Source of the DNA: Shigella phage SHFML-26 | DNA length: 64,000 nucleotides | Sequence record: KX130862 | Reading direction: 5' to 3' (one strand) | In this document: piece after piece, positions 541 to 54,128 of the stretch | Numbering within the stretch: position 1 is the stretch's first letter | How the letters are laid out: each line of letters opens with the position of its first letter | Notes under the pieces: generated by a model | The model's input: the letters and a program-made list of their open reading frames with translations, nothing else | What the model was told of the DNA's origin: nothing | Database searches by the model: none | Translations under genes and position numbers: made by a program

Positions 541-823
541 GAGAAATAATTCCTTGATAAGCCCAGTATGGCGGGTTAACAGAATCCTCACCAGAGTTTT
601 CTTCAGGAAAATAAACCTGGATAACGAAGCCGGATTCATCAAAGGTGAAATAAGTAGTAGGCAGTTCACCTAACAAATCGGCACGAGCGTTGATTTCTTC
701 GAGGTCTTGTTCACGTCCAGCCCAGAAGCTTGGGTTCAGACTACATTCATAGAAATAATAGTCATTACCGAACATATCAAAACCATTCCAACTCTCTACT
801 ACATACCGCTCAAAACTAATCAT
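512..823 (-). CDS. hypothetical protein
   Basis: 103-aa ORF on the early-gene strand, packed against neighbours. Confidence 0.5.
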   Translation of the reverse strand: MISFERYVVESWNGFDMFGNDYYFYECSLNPSFWAGREQDLEEINARADLLGELPTTYFTFDESGFVIQVYFPEENSGEDSVNPPYWAYQGIISRGTKLELKE

Positions 824-825
824 AA

Positions 826-1041
826 TTAAGCCTTTTTATCAAGAACAGCATTCAGCTTGTTAGTAATTTTATCCAGACGCTCATTAAACTCACTAGAAGA
901 TAAGCCCTTTTCTGGAGAAATTAAACTAATCACGAAAAATATAGCAATAAAAGGAATAAGGAAAATAGCTCCAACTGCCATAAACAGAAAGAATGTTACA
1001 GTTGTAAGAAAATCAGCTAAACCTTTACGAAATTTATACAT
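826..1041 (-). CDS. small membrane protein
   Basis: 71-aa ORF with one long hydrophobic segment (FFLFMAVGAIFLIPFIAIFFVISLI). Confidence 0.5.
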   Translation of the reverse strand: MYKFRKGLADFLTTVTFFLFMAVGAIFLIPFIAIFFVISLISPEKGLSSSEFNERLDKITNKLNAVLDKKA

Positions 1042-1156
1042 ATTTTACCCTTAATTAATTAACCAAGCATTGATAAGCACTAAACTATATTGGGAATAAA
1101 ATTCTGGACCAAAATGAAAAATCATATCATTTATAGTATCCATAATGTAATTCAGT

Positions 1157-1627
1157 TTAATCATGTTTCCACACCCCATCGGTATTTGACCAAAGTCGCT
1201 GATTATCTGATCCTCGCCACAGCTTTTTAGTCGGAAGATTTTTCTCATACTTCCCATCAATAATAACATCAACATATTTAAGCATTTCTAGCTGTTTAAT
1301 ATCTTCAAACTTATATCCTGTCCACAACCAAATGCTTTTATTGGGATAAAGATTTTTAATAGTTTGAACCACAGAGTGAATCACGTCTCTGTTATCAGGA
1401 TAAAGAGGGTCTCCTCCAGTTATAGTTAATCCTTCTATATAATCATTATTCAAACATTCAATCAATTGTTCTAGTGTTTCACCGGTGAATGGAATACCAT
1501 TTCTAGCATTCCATGTTGATTTATTATAACACCCTTCACATTTATGCAAACAACCTGTAACGAAAAGAACAGTTCTGCAACCAGGGCCATTCACAAAGCA
1601 GCACGGGTATATTCTGTCATAATTCAT
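1157..1627 (-). CDS. nrdG: anaerobic ribonucleotide reductase activating protein (radical SAM)
   Basis: 156 aa from MNYDRIYPCC; cysteine cluster CxxxCxxC-like (CLHKCEGC); immediately downstream of nrdD region as in T4. Confidence 0.85.
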   Translation of the reverse strand: MNYDRIYPCCFVNGPGCRTVLFVTGCLHKCEGCYNKSTWNARNGIPFTGETLEQLIECLNNDYIEGLTITGGDPLYPDNRDVIHSVVQTIKNLYPNKSIWLWTGYKFEDIKQLEMLKYVDVIIDGKYEKNLPTKKLWRGSDNQRLWSNTDGVWKHD

Positions 1628-2454
1628 AATAATATCCAATTTTTCCAAGCTTCATCAGTAGAATTACAGCGTTTTAGTATAAGATGTCTAGAAACTTTTA
1701 TGGCATTTGAGCACTTTTTAATTGAATCATATTTAATACCGTCAACTGAAACGGTTTTGCTAGTTGGAGAAATTTTTCCATACATTGGATTTTTTGAACC
1801 AACTTGAAGTCCTTTTAAAGCTTTTGAAAGCTTTTGTCTAGATTCCAATGACATGGGAGAATTCTTTTTACCTTCAATAATTCGCTTGCGATGAAGTTCG
1901 CGTTCTTCTTCACTCAAAGAATTGTAATATTTTTTAACACCGTTTGATATAGATAATTTATCTTTCTCAGACCGCTCTCCAGCTAATTTACTTCTAACAT
2001 CTTTTCGCTTCATAGCTATGCTTACGGCTTTATTTAAATTTGCTTGATGCTCTGGCGTACGTTTATATTTCTTTAAAGCACGTGAAATAGCTATTTTAGT
2101 TTCTTCTGTTCTCTTTTTACCTTTATTTGCTAAACTATTTTTGTGGCGATGTTCAAGTGTCTGTTCATAGGCAGTTCCACCTTTTCCACCAGGTTTAATA
2201 TTATATGTATTTTCTTTTAGACAATACTCTTCAGTTACAAGTTCAGCTTCTTTATCATACATTTGCTTTTCATTATCAAAAACATATAAAATTTCTTTAT
2301 AAAAATTTTTTCTACCATATTTTAATAAAGCAGCACGAATCAATGTTCCTGATCCCATATAACCGTCATTTATATTATCGGTGCTATGCGCACCGATATA
2401 TTCCTTTGAATTAATTATATTTGTTATTTTATAAATTATATAATACCTATGCAT
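1624..2454 (-). CDS. free-standing GIY-YIG homing endonuclease (Seg family)
   Basis: N-terminal YIIYKITN...YIGAHS...DGYMGSG GIY-YIG module plus basic C-terminal DNA-binding region; ATG 3 nt after nrdD stop. Confidence 0.8.
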   Translation of the reverse strand: MHRYYIIYKITNIINSKEYIGAHSTDNINDGYMGSGTLIRAALLKYGRKNFYKEILYVFDNEKQMYDKEAELVTEEYCLKENTYNIKPGGKGGTAYEQTLEHRHKNSLANKGKKRTEETKIAISRALKKYKRTPEHQANLNKAVSIAMKRKDVRSKLAGERSEKDKLSISNGVKKYYNSLSEEERELHRKRIIEGKKNSPMSLESRQKLSKALKGLQVGSKNPMYGKISPTSKTVSVDGIKYDSIKKCSNAIKVSRHLILKRCNSTDEAWKNWILL

Positions 2455-4264
2455 GTTTTACTCGTTTTACCATTTCTTTCATTTTACCTAAATTCCATGG
2501 AACAACGCTAGGAGTTCCAAGATATCCGCATGTTCTTCTTATTGTATTCATCTTTTTAGGATCAGTTTCTCCACAAATAGAACAAACAAATCCGTTTTCA
2601 GTAGGAGTCATTTCATGGGTACTTCCGCATGTAAAACACTTATCTACTGGCATGTTAACACCAAAATAATCTAAATGTTGTACAGCATAATCCCATACAG
2701 CCTCAAGACCTTTTAGGTTATTTTTCATATCAGGAAGTTCAACATAAGAAATGTGACCACCTGTCGCAATGAAATGATATGGCGCTTCACGAGAAATTTT
2801 TTCAAACGGAGTAATATTTTCTTCTACTGAAACGTGGAAACTATTAGTGTACCAGCCTTTATCGGTAACATCTTTTACACTTCCATATTTTTCTGTATCA
2901 AGTTTACAGAAGCGATAACAAAGGTTTTCAGCAGGAGTCGAATATAAACTAAAAGCAAATCCAGTTCTTTCAGTCCACTGTTTAAGATGAGCATTCATTT
3001 TAGTTAAAATTTCTTGTCCAATATCACGACCGACAAGAATATTCAATTCGTGAATACCAATGTATCCTAGGGACACTGAACTTCTACCATTTTTAAATAA
3101 CTCAATTATATCGTCATCAGGTTTAAGACGAACCCCGAATGCACCTTCTTGGTAAAGAATAGGAGCAACAGTCGCTTTAACTCCTTTTAAGGAACTAATT
3201 CTACACATCAAAGCTTCAAAACATAAATCCATTCGTTCATTGAATAATTCAACAAATTTCTGTTCATTGAACTGTGTTCCAATATAAGAATCTAACGCGA
3301 TGCGAGGAAGATTCAGTGTTACAACACCAAGATTATTACGTCCATCAAGAATTTCATTACCAGTCGAATCTTTCCATACGCTCAAGAAACTACGGCAACC
3401 CATTGGAGAAACAGGAATAGATGAACCAGTGATAGCTTTATTGTTCTTAGCTGAAATAATATCAGGATACATTCTTTTGCTTGCACACTCTAGAGCAAGC
3501 TGCTTAATATCATAGTTCGGATCGTCTTTATAAAGATTAACACCTTCTTCAACAAACATAACAAGCTTAGGGAAAATAGGAGTTATCCCATCACGACCAA
3601 GACCTTTAATACGATTTTTCAGAATTGCTTTCTGAATCATTCGTTCAGTCCAGTCAGTTCCTGTACCAAATGTAATTGTTACAAAAGGAGTCTGTCCGTT
3701 TGAACTAAAGAGAGTATTTACTTCATATTCATAAGCTTGGAATGCATCGTATACGTCTTTTTCTGTTTTAGATTGAGCATAATTTAACGCATCAGCGATT
3801 TGCCATTTTTCTGCATCCTCAATATGTTTTGCATAGGTGCGTTTAACATAAGGAGAAAGTACTTTATCTACATTAGCAAAAGTCGTTCCGCCGTATTGGT
3901 GAGAAGCAACCTGTGCAGTAATTTGTGCCATAATTGCAGTAGCAACGCCAATTGATTTAGGAGTTTCAATCTGCGCATTACCTAGCTTAAATCCGTTCTC
4001 AAGCATTCCTTTTAAATCTACTAAACAGCAATTAGTAAATGGAAGAGCAGGGGAATAATCAATATCGTGGAAATGAATAATTCCGCTTTCATGCGCTTTC
4101 ATAATAAAAGACGGGACCATATTTTTGGCAATGTGTTTAGACACAATACCAGCCATAAGGTCCCGTTGAGTTGGAAAAACACGAGAATCTTTATTAGCAT
4201 TCTCGTTTAAAAGGTCTTTATTAGTTTTATGAATCAATCCTTCAATTTCTTTTTCAATTGTCAT
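2447..4264 (-). CDS. nrdD: anaerobic ribonucleoside-triphosphate reductase, uninterrupted ORF
   Basis: 605-aa continuous ORF; glycyl-radical region RTCGYLG and C-terminal Cys cluster CFTCG...CSICG; matches T4 NrdD length. Confidence 0.9.
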   Translation of the reverse strand: MTIEKEIEGLIHKTNKDLLNENANKDSRVFPTQRDLMAGIVSKHIAKNMVPSFIMKAHESGIIHFHDIDYSPALPFTNCCLVDLKGMLENGFKLGNAQIETPKSIGVATAIMAQITAQVASHQYGGTTFANVDKVLSPYVKRTYAKHIEDAEKWQIADALNYAQSKTEKDVYDAFQAYEYEVNTLFSSNGQTPFVTITFGTGTDWTERMIQKAILKNRIKGLGRDGITPIFPKLVMFVEEGVNLYKDDPNYDIKQLALECASKRMYPDIISAKNNKAITGSSIPVSPMGCRSFLSVWKDSTGNEILDGRNNLGVVTLNLPRIALDSYIGTQFNEQKFVELFNERMDLCFEALMCRISSLKGVKATVAPILYQEGAFGVRLKPDDDIIELFKNGRSSVSLGYIGIHELNILVGRDIGQEILTKMNAHLKQWTERTGFAFSLYSTPAENLCYRFCKLDTEKYGSVKDVTDKGWYTNSFHVSVEENITPFEKISREAPYHFIATGGHISYVELPDMKNNLKGLEAVWDYAVQHLDYFGVNMPVDKCFTCGSTHEMTPTENGFVCSICGETDPKKMNTIRRTCGYLGTPSVVPWNLGKMKEMVKRVKHA

Positions 4265-4734
4265 TTTAAACTCTTTCTAAGCTGCTTCTTAAATGAAGCT
4301 ATTAACTGTGTTTTGGTGTCAGATTCATTATATTCAAATCCTCTTTGAAGCATCTCGGCCATCATTTCCTCTTTTCCTAAACGAGAAAATTCCTTTGATT
4401 TATCTCCAACAAAGTTAGGGTGAATATTATTTTGGGTGTAATCGGATTTTAAATAAGTAAGTAAATTTTCTAACCATTCAAGATAATCAACACCTTGACC
4501 CTTTAAGCCAGAACGATTAAATTTGTGCTTCATTTGACCTTCTGCAGCATTGCAGAGATTACAAAGCAATCCACGTACCTTTCCTGCTTTTGGTCCATTT
4601 AATTCATGGTCATGATCGAGGTGATTAGATTGAACATCAGGATTTAATTCTCGTTGGCAAATTAAGCATTTACCGTTTTGTGCATCATAAAATTTCTGTT
4701 TTTCTTCTTTGTATAATTTGCCAGTCAATAACAT
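4261..4734 (-). CDS. 49: recombination endonuclease VII (Holliday junction resolvase)
   Basis: 157 aa; recalled T4 gp49 sequence MLLTGKLYKEEKQKFYDAQNGKCLICQ...HLDHDHE...CNLCN. Confidence 0.9.
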   Translation of the reverse strand: MLLTGKLYKEEKQKFYDAQNGKCLICQRELNPDVQSNHLDHDHELNGPKAGKVRGLLCNLCNAAEGQMKHKFNRSGLKGQGVDYLEWLENLLTYLKSDYTQNNIHPNFVGDKSKEFSRLGKEEMMAEMLQRGFEYNESDTKTQLIASFKKQLRKSLK

Positions 4735-4776
4735 AATAAAACCCTTACCTTAAATAGATAAGGGTATTTATTATTT

Positions 4777-4952
4777 AAGTATTGTAAAACATTCGATGCA
4801 ATCGTTTATACTGTCGAATCATCTTTTTAGTAGGACGAGAATAGGTTCCTACGCAAGTGGTCATATGAGGGTCCGTAGAATGTCCTTTAATAAAAAGTTT
4901 CCAAACCTTACCGCCATTTAACTTTTCAGTATAAACCAATTCGGTTTTCATT
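4777..4952 (-). CDS. small ORF (about 58 aa) ending with a duplicated copy of the pin-like C-terminus
   Basis: ATG...MIRQYKRLHRMFYNT stop; last 15 codons are a diverged copy of the 3' end of the adjacent gene. Confidence 0.3.
4779..4825. repeat. direct repeat copy A (about 46 bp)
   Basis: AAGTATTGTAAAACATTCGATGCAATCGTTTATACTGTCGAATCAT; about 85 percent identical to copy at 4989-5035. Confidence 0.7.
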
Positions 4953-4987
4953 AAAATGCCTTGTCAGAAAAAGAATTTTGAGTTTTT

Positions 4988-5473
4988 TCAAGTATTATAA
5001 AACATTTGATGCAATCGCTTATATTGCCGAATCATTTGGTCAGAAAAAGAATTTTGTGTTTCAAGCCATTCAATGTACTCTGCGGCAGCTTGCATTAAAT
5101 TTCCTTCATAACCATCAATATCTTTTTTCAATGCCACTTTAGCTAATGCATATGAAATACGTTCACCTTGAAAAGCGGCTTTAGGCTTCTGAGCATCTTG
5201 GCTAGTTCTCTCTACAACTTCTTCAATTTCGCCATTTTCAACGGATTCAGTATTCCACAAGCACCAATACGTAATTGGCTTATCATAGATGTTAATAATC
5301 TTTCCGTCGGAAAGTTCAATTTCAATAATTCCAGTATCAGGCTCTATATCATCTTCACATTCTTTTGTAAGTTCACGAACTTTAAAGACAGTACCTGCAC
5401 TAAGTTCCGGCCAGTAATTACATAGCCCTGTATCAACACGATTAATTCTAAACCACTTATCTACTGTAATCAT
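4988..5473 (-). CDS. pin-like protein (inhibitor of host Lon protease), assigned by position and size
   Basis: 161 aa from MITVDKW; sits between gene 49 and nrdC as T4 pin does; no catalytic motif recognised. Confidence 0.5.
   Translation of the reverse strand: MITVDKWFRINRVDTGLCNYWPELSAGTVFKVRELTKECEDDIEPDTGIIEIELSDGKIINIYDKPITYWCLWNTESVENGEIEEVVERTSQDAQKPKAAFQGERISYALAKVALKKDIDGYEGNLMQAAAEYIEWLETQNSFSDQMIRQYKRLHQMFYNT
4989..5035. repeat. direct repeat copy B (about 46 bp), 3' end of pin-like gene
   Basis: AAGTATTATAAAACATTTGATGCAATCGCTTATATTGCCGAATCAT. Confidence 0.7.
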
Positions 5474-5595
5474 GTCCCATCTCCATATCAATTAAGTCAT
5501 TTATCGTTGGTTCATTATATACTGTTTCTTCATCAGTGTAAACCGGTTCTTCCGGCTCTGGCTCTACAGTTTCCCATCTAGCCGCCCACCAGGGT

Positions 5596-5766
5596 TTAAC
5601 CCCGAAGCTTATTAAGTTCTTCATAATCAATCCAGGATTCTAGTCCTGATGGCAAATCAGATTCAATTTCCCAAAGAAGCTCTTCAATTTTCTGAAGACG
5701 ATCTAGTTCTTCAGCTGGAATAGTAACCATTGATGGAGTTCTTGATACACTAATATCGTAAATCAT
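5596..5766 (-). CDS. hypothetical protein
   Basis: ORF on early strand; internal ATG chosen to abut upstream gene. Confidence 0.4.
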   Translation of the reverse strand: MIYDISVSRTPSMVTIPAEELDRLQKIEELLWEIESDLPSGLESWIDYEELNKLRG

Positions 5767-5768
5767 AT

Positions 5769-5984
5769 TTACCCCAGTTTGACCATGCAATCGCCGTATT
5801 TCCACTTAGAAATAGACTTTTCGCCATTAGAATAATAAACTTCGAGTTTAGCACGGTTATTTTTAATTTGAATAACCTTGGCTGTCATTAAAGTTCCATA
5901 CCCATAGTAAACTGCAACTTCATCACCTACATATACCGCGCTTCCGCGGTAATCATGGATATAATCAGTTCCTTCGAGCATCAT
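5769..5984 (-). CDS. hypothetical protein
   Basis: 71-aa ORF, start overlapping nrdC stop. Confidence 0.45.
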   Translation of the reverse strand: MMLEGTDYIHDYRGSAVYVGDEVAVYYGYGTLMTAKVIQIKNNRAKLEVYYSNGEKSISKWKYGDCMVKLG

Positions 5985-6244
5985 TTAAAGTATTCCCGCA
6001 ATTGGTCAAATCCACCAATATGACTTCCATCAGGAGCAAATACCTGAGGCATTGTTAAGCCGATTTGAGTATCACGACCTAGTTTAGTCAGAAGCTCAGC
6101 GATTTTCTCATCATCAAAAACACCTTTTTCCGGCATAATGTTGATAAATTCAAACGGCTGTTTCTTCACGGTCAAAAGACGTTTTGCATTATCGCAATAC
6201 ACGCATTTGTGGATGTTGCTATCATAACCATATACTTTAAACAT
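5981..6244 (-). CDS. nrdC: thioredoxin
   Basis: 87 aa; MFKVYGYDSNIHKCVYCDNAKRLL with CVYC active site as in T4 thioredoxin. Confidence 0.9.
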   Translation of the reverse strand: MFKVYGYDSNIHKCVYCDNAKRLLTVKKQPFEFINIMPEKGVFDDEKIAELLTKLGRDTQIGLTMPQVFAPDGSHIGGFDQLREYFK

Positions 6245-6245
6245 A

Positions 6246-6488
6246 TTATTCCTTAATTCCTAATACTTGTTTAAAAGTCTCGTCGTAATCAAGACTTTGG
6301 CCTGTTTGTTCTTTATGTTTGTATATAATATCACTTACTTCTGATAGCATATTTTTATATGAACGAGTTAAAGCAGATTTAAGCACGCTGTATCTATCAG
6401 GAAATTTACCGTGTTCATTATAATAAGCTATTGCTAATTCACGGACTGCCTTTTCAGCAGCCTCCATATATTCTTTACGCTTTGTCAT
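6246..6488 (-). CDS. hypothetical protein (start at internal Met likely)
   Basis: ORF 6246-6629 overlaps the next gene; internal start [13 protein letters not shown] avoids the overlap. Confidence 0.4.
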
Positions 6489-6789
6489 TTTCTTCTCGGT
6501 CAAATCGGTGTTTACAATGGCGACATTTATAACGAAGATTACTAGTCTGCCAATGGACCAATTGCACCTGTTCAGTTCCACATTCAGGGCAATTAGGAAC
6601 GTTTTTAGAAGCACGTTCGCGGCGTTCAACCATGACCATTACAGAATCCCAATTAATAGGGCTGCTATAATCATCACAACCATGAATCTTTCCACGCATT
6701 TCCAAATCGTCTTCTTCACCGGCCATAATAATTTTAATTAAACTGGAATTACTTGAAGCTGCAATGTCTTCTAATAGACGCTTTTTCAT
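6475..6789 (-). CDS. zinc-ribbon protein
   Basis: CPECG...CRHCKH two Cys pairs. Confidence 0.5.
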
Positions 6790-28439: not shown

Positions 28440-28515
28440 TGGTCGAGGCAGTAGGGATCGAACCTACGACCCAGGACTTAGAAGGTCCTTGCTCTTCCTT
28501 CTGAGCTATGCCCCG
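28440..28515 (-). tRNA. tRNA-Arg (anticodon UCU), CCA encoded
   Basis: Hand-folded cloverleaf: acceptor CGGGGCA/TGCCTCG, anticodon loop CUUCUAA, T-loop GTAGG-TTCGATC-CCTAC, 3' ACCA. Confidence 0.85.
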
Positions 28516-28518
28516 TAA

Positions 28519-29184
28519 TTAAAATTTCATTTTTCGACCTTTAAACCATCCTTCTGGAATTGGGTCAGTTTTCTTAATACGTTTAGAAACTTTTTCATCT
28601 AATGAATGAATCCACATCATACCAAATTGGGAATTCTTTTCACCTTTCTGGTGATTATTTTTAGCGTGAATTTCTTTCATTTTATTAATAGTTTCATCTG
28701 AATGGGACTTACCCAAGAAAGATTTAGTATTTGAAAATTTCTCTCTATACTTAGGATTATCCCAAAGCTGTTTAAACCTTTCTGAACCCATTTTACGATA
28801 TTTTTCTTTAAGGTCTGGGTCGTTCTCAAATCTGGTTTTAAAAGCGGCAGCTCCTTTTAAGGAAGCTTCTTTCTTTTTATCCAAATATTCTTTAGTGTTT
28901 AAATGGTCCCAACCACCTTCACCACCTAATTTCAAATTATAAACATCAGGGCGCTTTAAAAACTCTTCAGTCACAATATTCTTTTCTGACTCAAACATAG
29001 AGGTTTTATCGTCAAAGAACTCTAATATTTCTTTAGAAAAATTTTCTATACCATACTTATCTTGGGCTCTTTTTAATAATTTACCAGAACCCATATATCC
29101 ATCATCTAAATTTTCAGTTGAATGGGCGCCTATATAAATTTTATTATTAATTTTATTTGTTATTTTATAAGTGTAATAGAACAT
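28519..29184 (-). CDS. segB: GIY-YIG homing endonuclease SegB
   Basis: 221 aa; YYTYKITN...YIGAHS...DGYMGSG; inside tRNA cluster as in T4. Confidence 0.85.
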   Translation of the reverse strand: MFYYTYKITNKINNKIYIGAHSTENLDDGYMGSGKLLKRAQDKYGIENFSKEILEFFDDKTSMFESEKNIVTEEFLKRPDVYNLKLGGEGGWDHLNTKEYLDKKKEASLKGAAAFKTRFENDPDLKEKYRKMGSERFKQLWDNPKYREKFSNTKSFLGKSHSDETINKMKEIHAKNNHQKGEKNSQFGMMWIHSLDEKVSKRIKKTDPIPEGWFKGRKMKF

Positions 29185-29225
29185 AAATATCTCCTATTTC
29201 TAAGAGTATTTATGTTCTCAAAATA

Positions 29226-29297
29226 TGGCCCTGGGTGGAATTGAACCACCATCTGGCGATTATGAGTCGCTTGCTTGAACCTTCCAGCTACAGGGCC
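29226..29297 (-). tRNA. tRNA-Ile (anticodon CAU, AUA-reading type)
   Basis: Acceptor GGCCCTG/CAGGGCC, anticodon loop CUCAUAA, T-arm GGTGG-TTCAATT-CCACC. Confidence 0.8.
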
Positions 29298-29303
29298 TTG
29301 ATA

Positions 29304-29376
29304 TGCTGATTGACGGAATCGAACCGCCGACCTTCTCATTACAAGTGAGTTGCTCTACCTACTGAGCTAAATCAGC
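29304..29376 (-). tRNA. tRNA-Thr (anticodon UGU)
   Basis: Acceptor GCTGATT/AATCAGC, D-arm GCTC-AGTAGGTA-GAGC, anticodon loop CUUGUAA. Confidence 0.85.
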
Positions 29377-29383
29377 GAAATTA

Positions 29384-29470
29384 CGGAGGCGATAGGATTT
29401 GAACCTATGAGTCGCCGGAGCGACTGCCGGTTTTCAAGACCGGTGCATTAAACCACTCTGCCACGCCTCC
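29384..29470 (-). tRNA. tRNA-Ser (anticodon UGA), long variable arm
   Basis: Acceptor GGAGGCG/CGCCTCC, anticodon loop CUUGAAA, extended variable arm. Confidence 0.85.
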
Positions 29471-29472
29471 AG

Positions 29473-29546
29473 TCTCCGCGGCAGGATTTGAACCTGCGAC
29501 ATTCTGCTCCCAAAGCAGACGCTCTACCAAACTGAGCTACACGAAG
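29473..29546 (-). tRNA. tRNA-Pro (anticodon UGG)
   Basis: D-arm GCTC-AGTTGGTA-GAGC, anticodon loop UUUGGGA; 2 nt from tRNA-Ser. Confidence 0.85.
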
Positions 29547-29558
29547 TAAATTAAATTT

Positions 29559-29630
<72 letters not shown>

Positions 29631-29636
29631 AAACTT

Positions 29637-29723
29637 TGGTACGAGAAGTGGGACTCGAACCCACAAGGAAATCATTCCGCAGCATTTTAAGTGCTGTGCC
29701 TTTACCAATTTGACCATTCTCGC
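29637..29723 (-). tRNA. tRNA-Leu (anticodon UAA), long variable arm, CCA encoded
   Basis: Acceptor GCGAGAA/TTCTCGT, anticodon loop CUUAAAA, 3' ACCA. Confidence 0.85.
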
Positions 29724-29724
29724 G

Positions 29725-29797
29725 CTGGGAATAAAGGACTCGAACCTTTGCATCCTGGAATCAAAATCCAGTGCCTTACCAACTTGGCTAATTCCCA
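29725..29797 (-). tRNA. tRNA-Gln (anticodon UUG)
   Basis: Acceptor TGGGAAT/ATTCCCA, anticodon loop UUUUGAU; 1 nt from tRNA-Leu. Confidence 0.85.
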
Positions 29798-37702: not shown

Positions 37703-38231
37703 TATACTTCCAATGAGCGCTGATTTAGGAGAATCCATGGAAGGTTCTTCTATCGACGTCACCTTTACCGCTCAATTAGAAACAGGTGAAACGTTAGTAT
37801 CTATAAATATAACTAGTTACGAAGAAACTCCTGGGGTTTTAGTAGAAGAAAATCGCTTATATGGAACATATGAATCTGTGTTTGGATTTGGAAATGACGC
37901 GTTGAAATATCGACTAGGCGATGAATTTAAAACTGCTGCTTCATGGGAAGAACTTCCTACTGATTCTGATACTCAGTTGTATTTGTGGAAAGCTCCTCAG
38001 AACCTCCAGAAGACATTCACTTACGAAGTAACATTAATATATGACTACCAAGAACAAAGTGAATCTGGAGGTTCTGGCAGTAATTCTAGGTCATCCTCTG
38101 ATACTACTGAACCGACGGATCCTCCTGCTCCAGTAAGAAAAACTCTAGTTAAAAATTATACTAAAACTATAGTTGGAAATTGGAGTCGTTGGGCTAATAA
38201 ATTGAGAGAATATGCCTATGCAAGACCATAA
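37674..38231 (+). CDS. hypothetical protein gp5.1-like; start uncertain
   Basis: ORF directly downstream of gene 5; several candidate ATGs in first 25 codons. Confidence 0.55.
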   Translation: MMDRGLTLANILPMSADLGESMEGSSIDVTFTAQLETGETLVSINITSYEETPGVLVEENRLYGTYESVFGFGNDALKYRLGDEFKTAASWEELPTDSDTQLYLWKAPQNLQKTFTYEVTLIYDYQEQSESGGSGSNSRSSSDTTEPTDPPAPVRKTLVKNYTKTIVGNWSRWANKLREYAYARP

Positions 38232-38808
38232 ATATTTTTATTTGTATTCAATAACTAATAAAACAACAGGAAAAATTTATGTAGGCGTCCACAAAACTTC
38301 AAATTTGGATGATGGGTATATGGGTTCTGGCGTTGCCATTAAAAATGCCATTAAAAAATATGGCATAGATAATTTTTATAAGCATATTATAAAATTCTTT
38401 GAATCTGAAAAAGCTATGTATGACGCAGAGGCAGAAATAGTCACAGAGGAATTTGTTAAATCTAAGAAAACTTATAATATGAAACTAGGCGGTATCGGTG
38501 GCTTCCCAAAACATAACACAGCGGGTGCTAAAAATGGATTTTACGGTAAATCTCATTCGCGTGAAACTAGATTGAAAATTAGCATTAAATCGTCTAGAAA
38601 AAGAGGGCCTAGAGGGCCTAGAGGTAAAACTCTGAAGATGTGTGGCGCCAATAACCCAAGGTATGGCAAAATAGCCCCTAATGCTAAATCTGTTATTATC
38701 AACGGCGTTTTATATAAAAGTATTAAAATCGCAGCTAAAGCTCTTAATATAAATTATAGTACCTTAAAGGGGCGAGTTAAAGCGGGGTATTATAAATGTC
38801 AGGATTGA
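38212..38808 (+). CDS. GIY-YIG homing endonuclease (SegC-like)
   Basis: YFYLYSITN...YVGVHK...DGYMGSG, paralogous to segB and the nrdD-adjacent endonuclease. Confidence 0.8.

Positions 38809-51618: not shown

Positions 51619-54128
<2,510 letters not shown>

Follow-up and report, generated by a model that had tools for sequence, protein, structure and literature searches.

The region between nrdD and nrdG was examined in a window of 64,000 nt, the whole stretch of DNA that was analysed. The host genome is a distinct Tequatrovirus isolate, the first 25 kb being ~96% identical to the nearest record. Four genes lie on the minus strand in the order 49-nrdD-segH-nrdG, and the same order is found in the records of LZ2, RB3 and T6:

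4261..4734, minus strand, gene 49, endonuclease VII (Pfam Endonuclease_7 and Endonuc-dimeris)
2447..4264, minus strand, nrdD, large subunit of the anaerobic ribonucleotide reductase, 605 aa (Pfam NRDD, E 3.6e-171, and Gly_radical)
1624..2454, minus strand, gene assigned as segH, predicted to encode a free-standing GIY-YIG-type homing endonuclease of 276 aa (identity to named SegH; PHROG 314)
1157..1627, minus strand, nrdG, activase of the anaerobic reductase, 156 aa (Pfam Fer4_12, E 1.6e-48, and Radical_SAM)

Gene 49 is located upstream of nrdD, as in T6, T4 and T2, and its stop codon overlaps the ATG of nrdD (ATGA). The NRDD match spans nrdD at full length, and the gene aligns without a gap to its intron-less counterparts in T2, T6 and OE5505 and equals them in length, in agreement with the original prediction of one uninterrupted 605-codon ORF. 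The same prediction correctly recognized a Seg-like GIY-YIG ORF between nrdD and nrdG, which comprises 276 codons and is identified below as SegH; its start had been placed, wrongly, 3 nt past the nrdD stop. The ATG of segH (2454-2452) is found within the last 8 nt of nrdD, ahead of the TAG of that gene (2449-2447), so that nrdD and segH share 8 nt (ATGCATAG). At the other end, the TGA of segH overlaps the ATG of nrdG (ATGA), the true nrdG start being the ATG at 1627 in place of the upstream TTG given in the ORF listing. Both segH overlaps were likewise annotated by the depositors of the LZ2, RB3 and T6 records.

Comparison with named proteins revealed the identity of the ORF. Over the full length, it differs from SegH of LZ2 (ABI48951; AY262139) in 2 of 276 residues (99.3% identity), from that of RB3 (ABI48949; AY262138) in three (98.9%) and from that of T6 (MH550421) in 6 of 276 (97.8%), and the name SegH is present in all three GenBank records. 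Since 69 phage records encode the protein at ≥90% identity, each as a full-length ORF, 1624-2454 is not a chance ORF. The PHROG 314 family, "homing endonuclease", matches it with E 2.4e-60. Residues 52 and 57 are tyrosines here and in the KAW3E185 allele, while LZ2, RB3 and T6 have N52 and H57; none of the differences from these four SegH proteins affects a motif residue. In public records, the gene is also found under the labels "segD" (RB3 to RB10 genomes), "group I intron endonuclease" (KAW3E185) and "hypothetical protein" (others).

The feature is already known, having been described in 2005. In the accounts that cite that work, SegH is a published homing endonuclease which replaces the T4 HNH gene mobC between nrdD and nrdG (Sandegren, Nord and Sjöberg, NAR 2005, as cited in PMC2988022 and bioRxiv 10.1101/2022.08.31.505936). 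It is a selfish element and a textbook case of intron-less homing, and the present gene is one more near-identical copy; the weight of the finding lies mainly in correct annotation. The reading preferred on sequence comparison, to which we assign a probability of about 0.88, is that ORF 1624-2454 is the segH of T-even-type phages and encodes a free-standing endonuclease that spreads by homing.

As far as sequence and model comparisons can tell, SegH has the modular build of I-TevI, with a GIY-YIG-type nuclease, a basic NUMOD3 linker and a C-terminal helix-turn-helix DNA-binding domain. The N-terminus reads MHRYYIIYKITN...YIG, and matches to NUMOD3 and to the I-TevI-type DNA-binding domain were obtained. 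The predicted parts are:

2176..2454, minus strand, SegH residues 1-93, catalytic GIY-YIG-type domain with Y8, Y19-I-G21, E69 and N85 (alignments, hhalign, profile, Foldseek)
1771..2157, minus strand, SegH residues ~100-228, basic linker with NUMOD3 repeats (Pfam NUMOD3, E 1.2e-7, three stretches; low-confidence helices in the model)
1636..1779, minus strand, SegH residues 226-273, I-TevI-type C-terminal DNA-binding (helix-turn-helix) domain (Pfam I-TevI_DNA-bd, E 3e-4, under the cut-off; Foldseek 1I3J)

Alignments of the catalytic domain took in T4 SegD and SegE, the SegB- and SegC-like proteins of this phage, and I-TevI. Y8, Y19, G21, E69 and N85 are invariant across the five Seg-type domains. 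The segments I-I-Y8 and Y19-I-G21 of SegH align with Y6 and Y17-V-G19 of I-TevI, so that both the GIY and the YIG tyrosine are present, and N85 was aligned with I-TevI N90 in every alignment, while E69, the candidate for the metal-binding glutamate, falls at most one position from I-TevI E75. Seg-type proteins have a gap of nine residues opposite DFEKRWKRH of I-TevI, which holds R27 and H31. For the catalytic Arg27 of I-TevI, no alignable arginine was found in SegH by the Seg/I-TevI alignments or by hhalign, an invariant H23 being present instead.

The relationship to I-TevI was also seen by profile methods. Comparison of SegH with I-TevI 1-95 by hhalign gave a probability of 71% (E 3.6e-5), and a profile built from the five Seg domains had the I-TevI catalytic-domain entries 1MK0 and 1LN0 as best matches in the PDB (E 0.0014). 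A phmmer search of the PDB with the single SegH sequence returned chance matches only, and the generic Pfam GIY-YIG model did not match SegH even at E ≤ 10. Two family models matched below threshold: SegE_GIY-YIG (E 0.025, 15.3 bits vs a cut-off of 25) and TIGR01453, "group I intron endonuclease", the best NCBIfam match (E 7e-13, 49 bits vs 56). In the AF2 model, which was obtained from a three-sequence alignment and has a mean pLDDT of 57, values of ~56-86 were reached in the N-terminal domain, and confidence is too low for a residue to be assigned in place of R27. For this model, Foldseek ranked three I-TevI catalytic-domain entries of the PDB first (probability 1.00, TM 0.60-0.61 by target) and 1I3J, the I-TevI DNA-binding domain, fourth (probability 0.51). 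Thus, there is moderate support for a predicted GIY-YIG alpha/beta fold of the N-terminal domain.

The nine-residue deletion, spanning R27 and H31 of I-TevI, could be taken to mean that the main role of SegH, which lacks the Arg27 helix, is regulation through sequence-specific DNA binding, or nicking, and not double-strand cleavage, and I-TevI does also serve as a repressor (PMC2988022). However, the same deletion occurs in T4 SegE, which is listed as active, and in the SegB- and SegC-like proteins of this phage, whose T4 namesakes are listed as active as well (PMC2988022 Table 1), and SegH itself was published as a homing endonuclease. We consider a regulator or nickase very improbable.

The state of nrdD was examined at the position where the T4 gene is interrupted:

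3726..3727 (3727 ^ 3726), minus strand, site, empty here, at which the group I intron of T4 nrdD (sunY) is inserted, nt 538 ^ 539 of the gene

In T4, the intron is 1033 nt long, with an exon that ends in T and an intron that ends in G. The alignment with T4 confirms that the site is empty, intact and identical to that of T2; the sequence GAAT ^ ATGAAGTAAATACTCTCTTTAGT is also identical in T6, OE5505 and LZ2. Rfam found no group I intron at gathering score in the whole 64,000-nt window and none at E ≤ 1 within 1000-5000. The T4 nrdD intron, used as positive control, was found at 105 bits; as Rfam at gathering score also misses the diverged nrdD intron of KAW3E185, a negative result of this kind is weak when taken alone. 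With the gapless, colinear nrdD added to the Rfam result, a hidden intron in nrdD or at the junction was rejected and the predicted intron-less state of nrdD stands.

These data bear on whether the ORF might itself be intron-encoded, a group I intron being hidden within nrdD or where nrdD meets nrdG. The name points that way, in the annotation "group I intron endonuclease" of KAW3E185 (record MK373782) as in the TIGR01453 match, and so does the failure of Rfam at gathering score with the diverged KAW3E185 intron. Nevertheless, the ORF overlaps coding sequence at both ends and therefore leaves no room for an intron RNA, both nrdD and nrdG match their T2 counterparts colinearly and at full length, and even the search of 1000-5000 at E ≤ 1 gave no intron match; we give intron encoding next to no credence.

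The original prediction had further implied that the missing intron and the free-standing endonuclease are connected, and this connection proved not to be real. In KAW3E185, segH coexists with an nrdD intron that was confirmed as homologous to the T4 intron and occupies the T4 site, and EC128, FL23 and FL44 carry segH together with an insert of ~1.0 kb in nrdD. In T4, the intron is accompanied by mobC, and T2 lacks the intron as well as segH and mobC. Since the nrdD intron and segH thus seem to occur together in four phage records or more, absence of the intron is a polymorphism independent of the presence of segH.

The features of the segH flanks are:

1535..2554, minus strand, candidate mobile unit, segH with putatively co-converted flanks of ~100 nt of nrdD and ~90 nt of nrdG (comparison with Salmonella phage KM16)
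2516..2539, minus strand, glycyl-radical motif of nrdD, codons 576-583, RRTCGYLG (translation and alignment)
2447..2522, minus strand, segH-linked variant of the nrdD 3' end, which starts directly past the glycyl-radical motif
1598..1627, minus strand, segH-linked variant of the nrdG 5' end (MNYDRIYPCC vs MNYDRFYPCD), common to T6 and unlike T2, OE5505 and T4

Gly580 of NrdD is presumably the radical site, as is established for T4 NrdD. The last ~75 nt of nrdD encode ...TPSVVPWNLGKMKEMVKRVKHA here, as against ...NPNERGFNLGKNKEIMHRVKHQ of the T2/T4 type, and over the last 118 nt of the gene, 115 positions match T6, a segH phage, and only 82-83 match T2, T4 and OE5505. Within Tequatrovirus, the distinct nrdD tail and nrdG head are common to segH phages. 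Comparison with KM16, a Moonvirus, revealed an island of ~1 kb (~1535-2554) that is ~92% identical, while the neighbouring nrdD and nrdG are ~70% identical; counted per 60 nt, 51-60 of 60 positions are identical within the island and 31-51 in the adjoining nrdD and nrdG. These comparisons place the limits of the mobile unit ~100 nt into nrdD and 30-90 nt into nrdG on either side of segH, and they show that it crossed between Tequatrovirus and Moonvirus.

T2 and OE5505 show the empty site, with nrdD running directly into nrdG through an ATGA overlap. From the sequences compared, this T2-type empty junction looks like the common state, as it was seen in every single-piece match among those listed; these junctions are at most 88% identical to the segH type. 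All of them have T2-type flanks, and precise loss of segH, which would leave segH-type flanks without the gene, was found in none of the single-piece junction matches listed. The only intermediate found is PD112, and as it carries a segH remnant with an internal deletion of ~570 nt, segH can decay.

The decayed copy would also fit a history in which the gene is segH by descent and is now a fixed, non-homing passenger, kept since its overlaps tie it to nrdD-nrdG translation and its deletion would disturb the expression of nrdG. The 8 and 4 nt shared with its neighbours in an essential operon and the lack of a promoter of its own in the scans would suit such a passenger, as might Y52/Y57 against N52/H57 of LZ2, RB3 and T6. 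On the contrary, dN/dS is ~0.2 across the whole segH ORF (0.20 vs KM16, with 34.5 synonymous and 30.5 non-synonymous differences, and 0.19 vs T6), the ORF is full-length in the 69 records, the cross-genus island with its co-converted flanks is recent, and Y52/Y57 recur in KAW3E185 with the motif residues unchanged. A passenger is improbable on this evidence, and homing remains the preferred reading.

Homing of segH is best pictured by analogy with published work on SegH and other Seg enzymes. In a mixed infection, SegH would cut the DNA of a segH-less relative near the nrdD/nrdG junction, and recombination would repair the break with the segH genome as template. By this repair, the recipient would acquire segH and, with it, ~100 nt at the 3' end of nrdD and 30-90 nt at the 5' end of nrdG. 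SegH reportedly also cuts its own genome. The originally predicted intron-less homing by a free-standing endonuclease between nrdD and nrdG agrees with the literature on SegH and with the ~92% identical island shared across genera.

As for expression, neither an exact copy of the T4 late promoter (TATAAATA) nor a middle promoter with a convincing MotA box was found in or before segH, and a sigma-70 promoter scan at segH yielded fewer sites than shuffled sequence. The gene, having no recognisable promoter of its own and no strong ribosome-binding site, would be part of the nrdD-nrdG message. Because of these features and of the 8-nt and ATGA overlaps, SegH is probably made at low level via translational coupling, and translation of nrdG would now follow that of segH and not of nrdD. 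A 9-bp hairpin at 2376-2398 (segH codons 19-26) was considered as a regulator and rejected, its fold z of -1.74 being unremarkable.

In T4, mobC is located at the nrdD/nrdG junction, exactly where segH sits here, and it occupies this junction in 31 other records as well. The first seven codons of T4 MobC copy the nrdG start, and MobC-like ORFs begin with such a copy, MNYDRIY in T4 and MNYHKIY in leE. The start of SegH, ATGCATAGG, repeats the 9 nt from which M598-H-R is read in T2-type nrdD, and NrdD receives a different sequence over its last 24 residues from the segH cassette. Genes of both kinds are present in Cronobacter phage leE, a SegH-like one directly past nrdD and, 2.8 kb away, a MobC-like one directly before nrdG. 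A tentative proposal, which we hold to be rather doubtful, is that SegH and MobC are not rivals for one site: the home of SegH would be the nrdD 3' end past the glycyl-radical codons and that of MobC the first nrdG codons, and the two would look interchangeable in T-even phages since nrdD and nrdG abut there. If true, each endonuclease took its start codon from the host gene that it invaded and carries a replacement end for it.

Among known systems, I-TevI, the td intron endonuclease (1MK0, 1LN0, 1I3J), has the same two-domain build of nuclease, linker and helix-turn-helix DNA-binding domain. SegH is ~25% identical to it, has extra NUMOD3 repeats, is not intron-encoded and lacks the nine residues with R27/H31. 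I-TevII of the T4 nrdD (sunY) intron is of the GIY-YIG type too and has the same host gene, but it is intron-encoded, is placed at nrdD nt 538, ~1.3 kb from segH, and is only ~24% identical to SegH; the T4 nrdD intron and I-TevII are both absent from the window of this phage. The mechanistic paradigm is provided by SegF and SegG of T4, free-standing Seg endonucleases that cut a conserved neighbour gene in a competitor phage with co-conversion of flanking markers, for which "intronless homing" was reportedly described (Belle et al. 2002; Liu et al. 2003). Their loci differ from that of SegH, as do their targets (gene 56, gene 32). SegF and SegG count as active in Table 1 of PMC2988022; the same paper gives the activity of MobC as "not determined". 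MobC of T4 shares the junction with SegH and is free-standing, but belongs to an unrelated nuclease family, HNH. The closest counterparts are SegH of LZ2, RB3 and T6, which have the same position between nrdD and nrdG, the same overlaps and the same variant nrdD tail and nrdG head, and from which the present gene has only allelic differences, with Y52/Y57 here and N52/H57 there.

The phage is T4-like (Tequatrovirus), and the nearest public genomes share ~96% identity with the first 25 kb of the window. Four minus-strand genes are arranged head to tail, from gene 49 through nrdD and a 276-aa ORF to nrdG:

4261-4734, minus strand, gene 49 (endonuclease VII)
2447-4264, minus strand, nrdD (605 aa; full-length match to Pfam NRDD, E 3.6e-171)
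1624-2454, minus strand, segH (276 aa)
1157-1627, minus strand, nrdG (156 aa)

The coordinates and the uninterrupted 605-codon nrdD of the original prediction are borne out. The start of the ORF had been placed 3 nt past the nrdD stop, which is wrong, as its ATG (2454-2452) sits 8 nt inside nrdD (ATGCATAG); its TGA overlaps the nrdG ATG as ATGA. Between gene 49 and pin lies a 52-nt direct repeat (4771-4822 and 4984-5035, 87% identical, 213 nt apart), which gives a 58-aa ORF (4775-4951) and Pin (ORF 4988-5491) the same C-terminus, MIRQYKRLH.MFYNT. The extra ORF is absent from T6 and T4, and a 58-codon ORF is found at the same position in OE5505.

About thirty genomes among the matches listed share 97.2-97.6% identity with the 3.7-kb region, and the ORF is annotated segH in T6 (MH550421) and PP01. 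Its protein differs by two residues from SegH of LZ2 (AY262139) and by three from that of RB3 (AY262138), both records naming SegH in their titles, by six from T6 and by one from KAW3E185; no difference among these alleles falls on a motif residue, and in all of these records the annotated genes overlap by the same 8 nt and 4 nt. Judged from these comparisons, the ORF is SegH itself and not a variant. This identity supports the original reading of a free-standing Seg-like homing endonuclease, except for the placing of the junction and the implied link with the missing intron. The first description of SegH is that of Sandegren, Nord and Sjöberg (Nucleic Acids Res 2005, 33:6203), and two further papers (PMC2988022 and bioRxiv 10.1101/2022.08.31.505936) cite it as a homing endonuclease that replaces mobC between nrdD and nrdG. 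The 2005 abstract is said to report cleavage close to its own gene, cutting of both segH-containing and segH-less DNA, and homing in mixed infections. Several public genomes (KM606994-KM606999 (RB3, RB5-RB10), MK373782, MZ2340xx) carry other labels for this gene, 'segD', 'group I intron endonuclease' or 'hypothetical protein', which are annotation errors.

SegH at ≥90% identity was found in 69 phage records and MobC in 32, while the nrdD/nrdG junction was matched in about 770. Every single-piece junction match among those listed is an empty site with an nrdD/nrdG ATGA overlap, as in T2 and OE5505. A second SegH-like clade (47% identity over the full length) comprises 24 records of Klebsiella, Cronobacter and Enterobacter phages, and in Salmonella phage KM16 (genus Moonvirus) segH also lies between nrdD and nrdG.

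The segH-containing Tequatrovirus phages examined have a distinct common variant of the neighbouring gene ends. It covers the last ~75 nt of nrdD, from just after the glycyl-radical motif RRTCGYLG, with 9 of the 24 final residues changed, and the first ~30 nt of nrdG (F6I, D10C); over the rest of nrdD, T2 and T6 are about equally similar to the window. Against KM16, 51-60 of 60 nt are identical in each 60-nt stretch across 2554-1535, and the figure drops to 31-51 of 60 where nrdD and nrdG continue beyond these limits. This pattern is as predicted for homing with co-conversion of short flanks, and a putative mobile unit of about 1 kb is delimited. Purifying selection on segH is indicated by its dN/dS, which is 0.19 against T6, 0.08 against LZ2 and 0.20 against KM16, where 34.5 synonymous and 30.5 non-synonymous differences were counted. 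In Escherichia phage vB_vPM_PD112 (MH837626), a decayed segH was found that has lost ~570 nt internally, at a 12-nt microhomology, consistent with the usual cycle in which such genes invade, decay and are lost. This remnant (region 601-1210 of the compared segment) retains roughly ~140 nt from the start of the gene and ~110 nt from its end, between segH-type nrdD and nrdG flanks, and is unannotated in MH837626.

The identity with SegH, the position, domain build and conserved motifs, the transfer signature and the purifying selection are direct observations. Going by published work on SegH and the other Seg endonucleases, the protein would bind DNA through its C-terminal domain and, when a phage lacking segH infects the same cell, cut the DNA of that phage near the nrdD/nrdG junction; recombinational repair would then copy segH with its flanks into the cut genome. 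The cut is suggested to lie within ~100 nt of segH, on one side of the gene, because the co-converted flanks point there. No promoter of its own was found in a scan in and before segH, and only a weak GAG precedes the ATG; segH is thus probably expressed weakly, its translation being coupled to that of nrdD. The same has been described for other overlapping free-standing endonuclease genes (PMC2988022).

The group I intron of T4 nrdD (1033 nt, with I-TevII) is inserted after nrdD nt 538, T being the last exon and G the last intron nucleotide. On alignment, the window is continuous at this site (between 3727 and 3726), as is T2, and ~70 nt around it match intron-less T2, T6, OE5505 and LZ2 except for scattered single differences. 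The T4 flanking exons differ from the window allele at one position just upstream; within 20 nt on the downstream side there are six differences, all synonymous. A hidden group I intron core was not found by Rfam, whether the whole window was searched at gathering score or 1000-5000 at E ≤ 1. The positive control, the T4 nrdD intron, was detected at 105 bits, but the diverged KAW3E185 intron, 66% identical to it, was missed at gathering score; hence the gap-free alignment of nrdD with that of T2 over its full length is the stronger argument against an intron. Phage vB_EcoM_KAW3E185 (KAW3E185) carries both segH and this homologue of the T4 intron, at the T4 site (682-1721 of its compared segment), and in EC128, FL23 and FL44 segH is accompanied by an nrdD insert of ~1.0 kb. 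It follows that segH and the intron are independent of each other, and the implied link between a missing intron and a free-standing endonuclease does not hold.

In T4, the HNH gene mobC occupies the position of segH. In Cronobacter phage vB_CsaM_leE (leE), a SegH-like GIY-YIG gene (47% identity) directly follows nrdD, 53 nt past its stop, and 2.8 kb downstream nrdG is immediately preceded by a MobC-like HNH gene (794-6780 of the compared segment), so that both element types are present in one phage at separate genes. This raises the possibility that SegH and MobC have different home genes, the apparent replacement arising only where nrdD and nrdG abut. The SegH start ATGCATAGG (M-H-R, 2446-2454) recurs in frame as M598-H-R (codons 598-600) of the T2/T4-type nrdD tail, where it stands 16 nt farther upstream, counted from the stop; in leE, the SegH-like protein begins with MFYTIYKITN, without this extension. 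The segH start codon may have been captured from nrdD. In MobC-like genes the first ~7 nrdG codons are copied at the start (MNYDRIY in T4, segment positions 2878-2917 and 3500-3539; MNYHKIY in leE, 5980-6019 and 6618-6657), and the nrdG start appears to have been duplicated at the insertion point.

Other endonuclease genes were also seen in the window. A SegB-like GIY-YIG gene (221 aa, 28519-29184, minus strand) adjoins a cluster of eight tRNA genes (region 28443-29797), as in T4, and a SegC-like one (198 aa, 38212-38808, plus strand) lies downstream of a gp5-like baseplate lysozyme gene and gene 5.1. An HNH gene (52545-53356, plus strand), flanked by ORFs of 309 and 267 aa, consists of two overlapping ORFs, of 153 aa (MobE/MobC-like) and 117 aa (I-TevIII C-terminus-like), and may be frameshifted or decaying.

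The SegH protein is built as follows:

residues 1-93, Seg-type GIY-YIG domain
residues ~100-228, NUMOD3 repeats
residues 226-273, weak match to the I-TevI DNA-binding domain

A perfect 9-bp inverted repeat (TATCGGTGC...GCACCGATA, 2376-2398) covers codons 19-26, the YIGAHSTD motif; the sequence around it shows no exceptional folding (z = -1.74). On family membership the evidence points both ways. SegH was not matched by the generic Pfam GIY-YIG model, and two related curated models scored under their cut-offs. The I-TevI catalytic-domain structures were best in a search of the PDB with a Seg-domain profile (E 0.0014), and hhalign of the SegH domain with I-TevI gave a probability of 71% (E 3.6e-5). 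With the AlphaFold model (N-terminal domain pLDDT ~56-86, overall mean 57), Foldseek ranked I-TevI catalytic-domain entries 1-3 (probability 1.00) and the I-TevI DNA-binding domain fourth. Y8, Y19, G21, E69 and N85, invariant among SegH, the SegB-like and SegC-like proteins of the window and T4 SegD and SegE, correspond in the alignments to Y6, Y17, G19, E75 and N90 of I-TevI; I-TevI R27 has no alignable counterpart. A 9-residue gap takes the place of the helix with R27, absent from all Seg-type proteins aligned. T4 SegE, with the same gap as SegH, is listed as active, like T4 SegA, SegB and SegC (PMC2988022).
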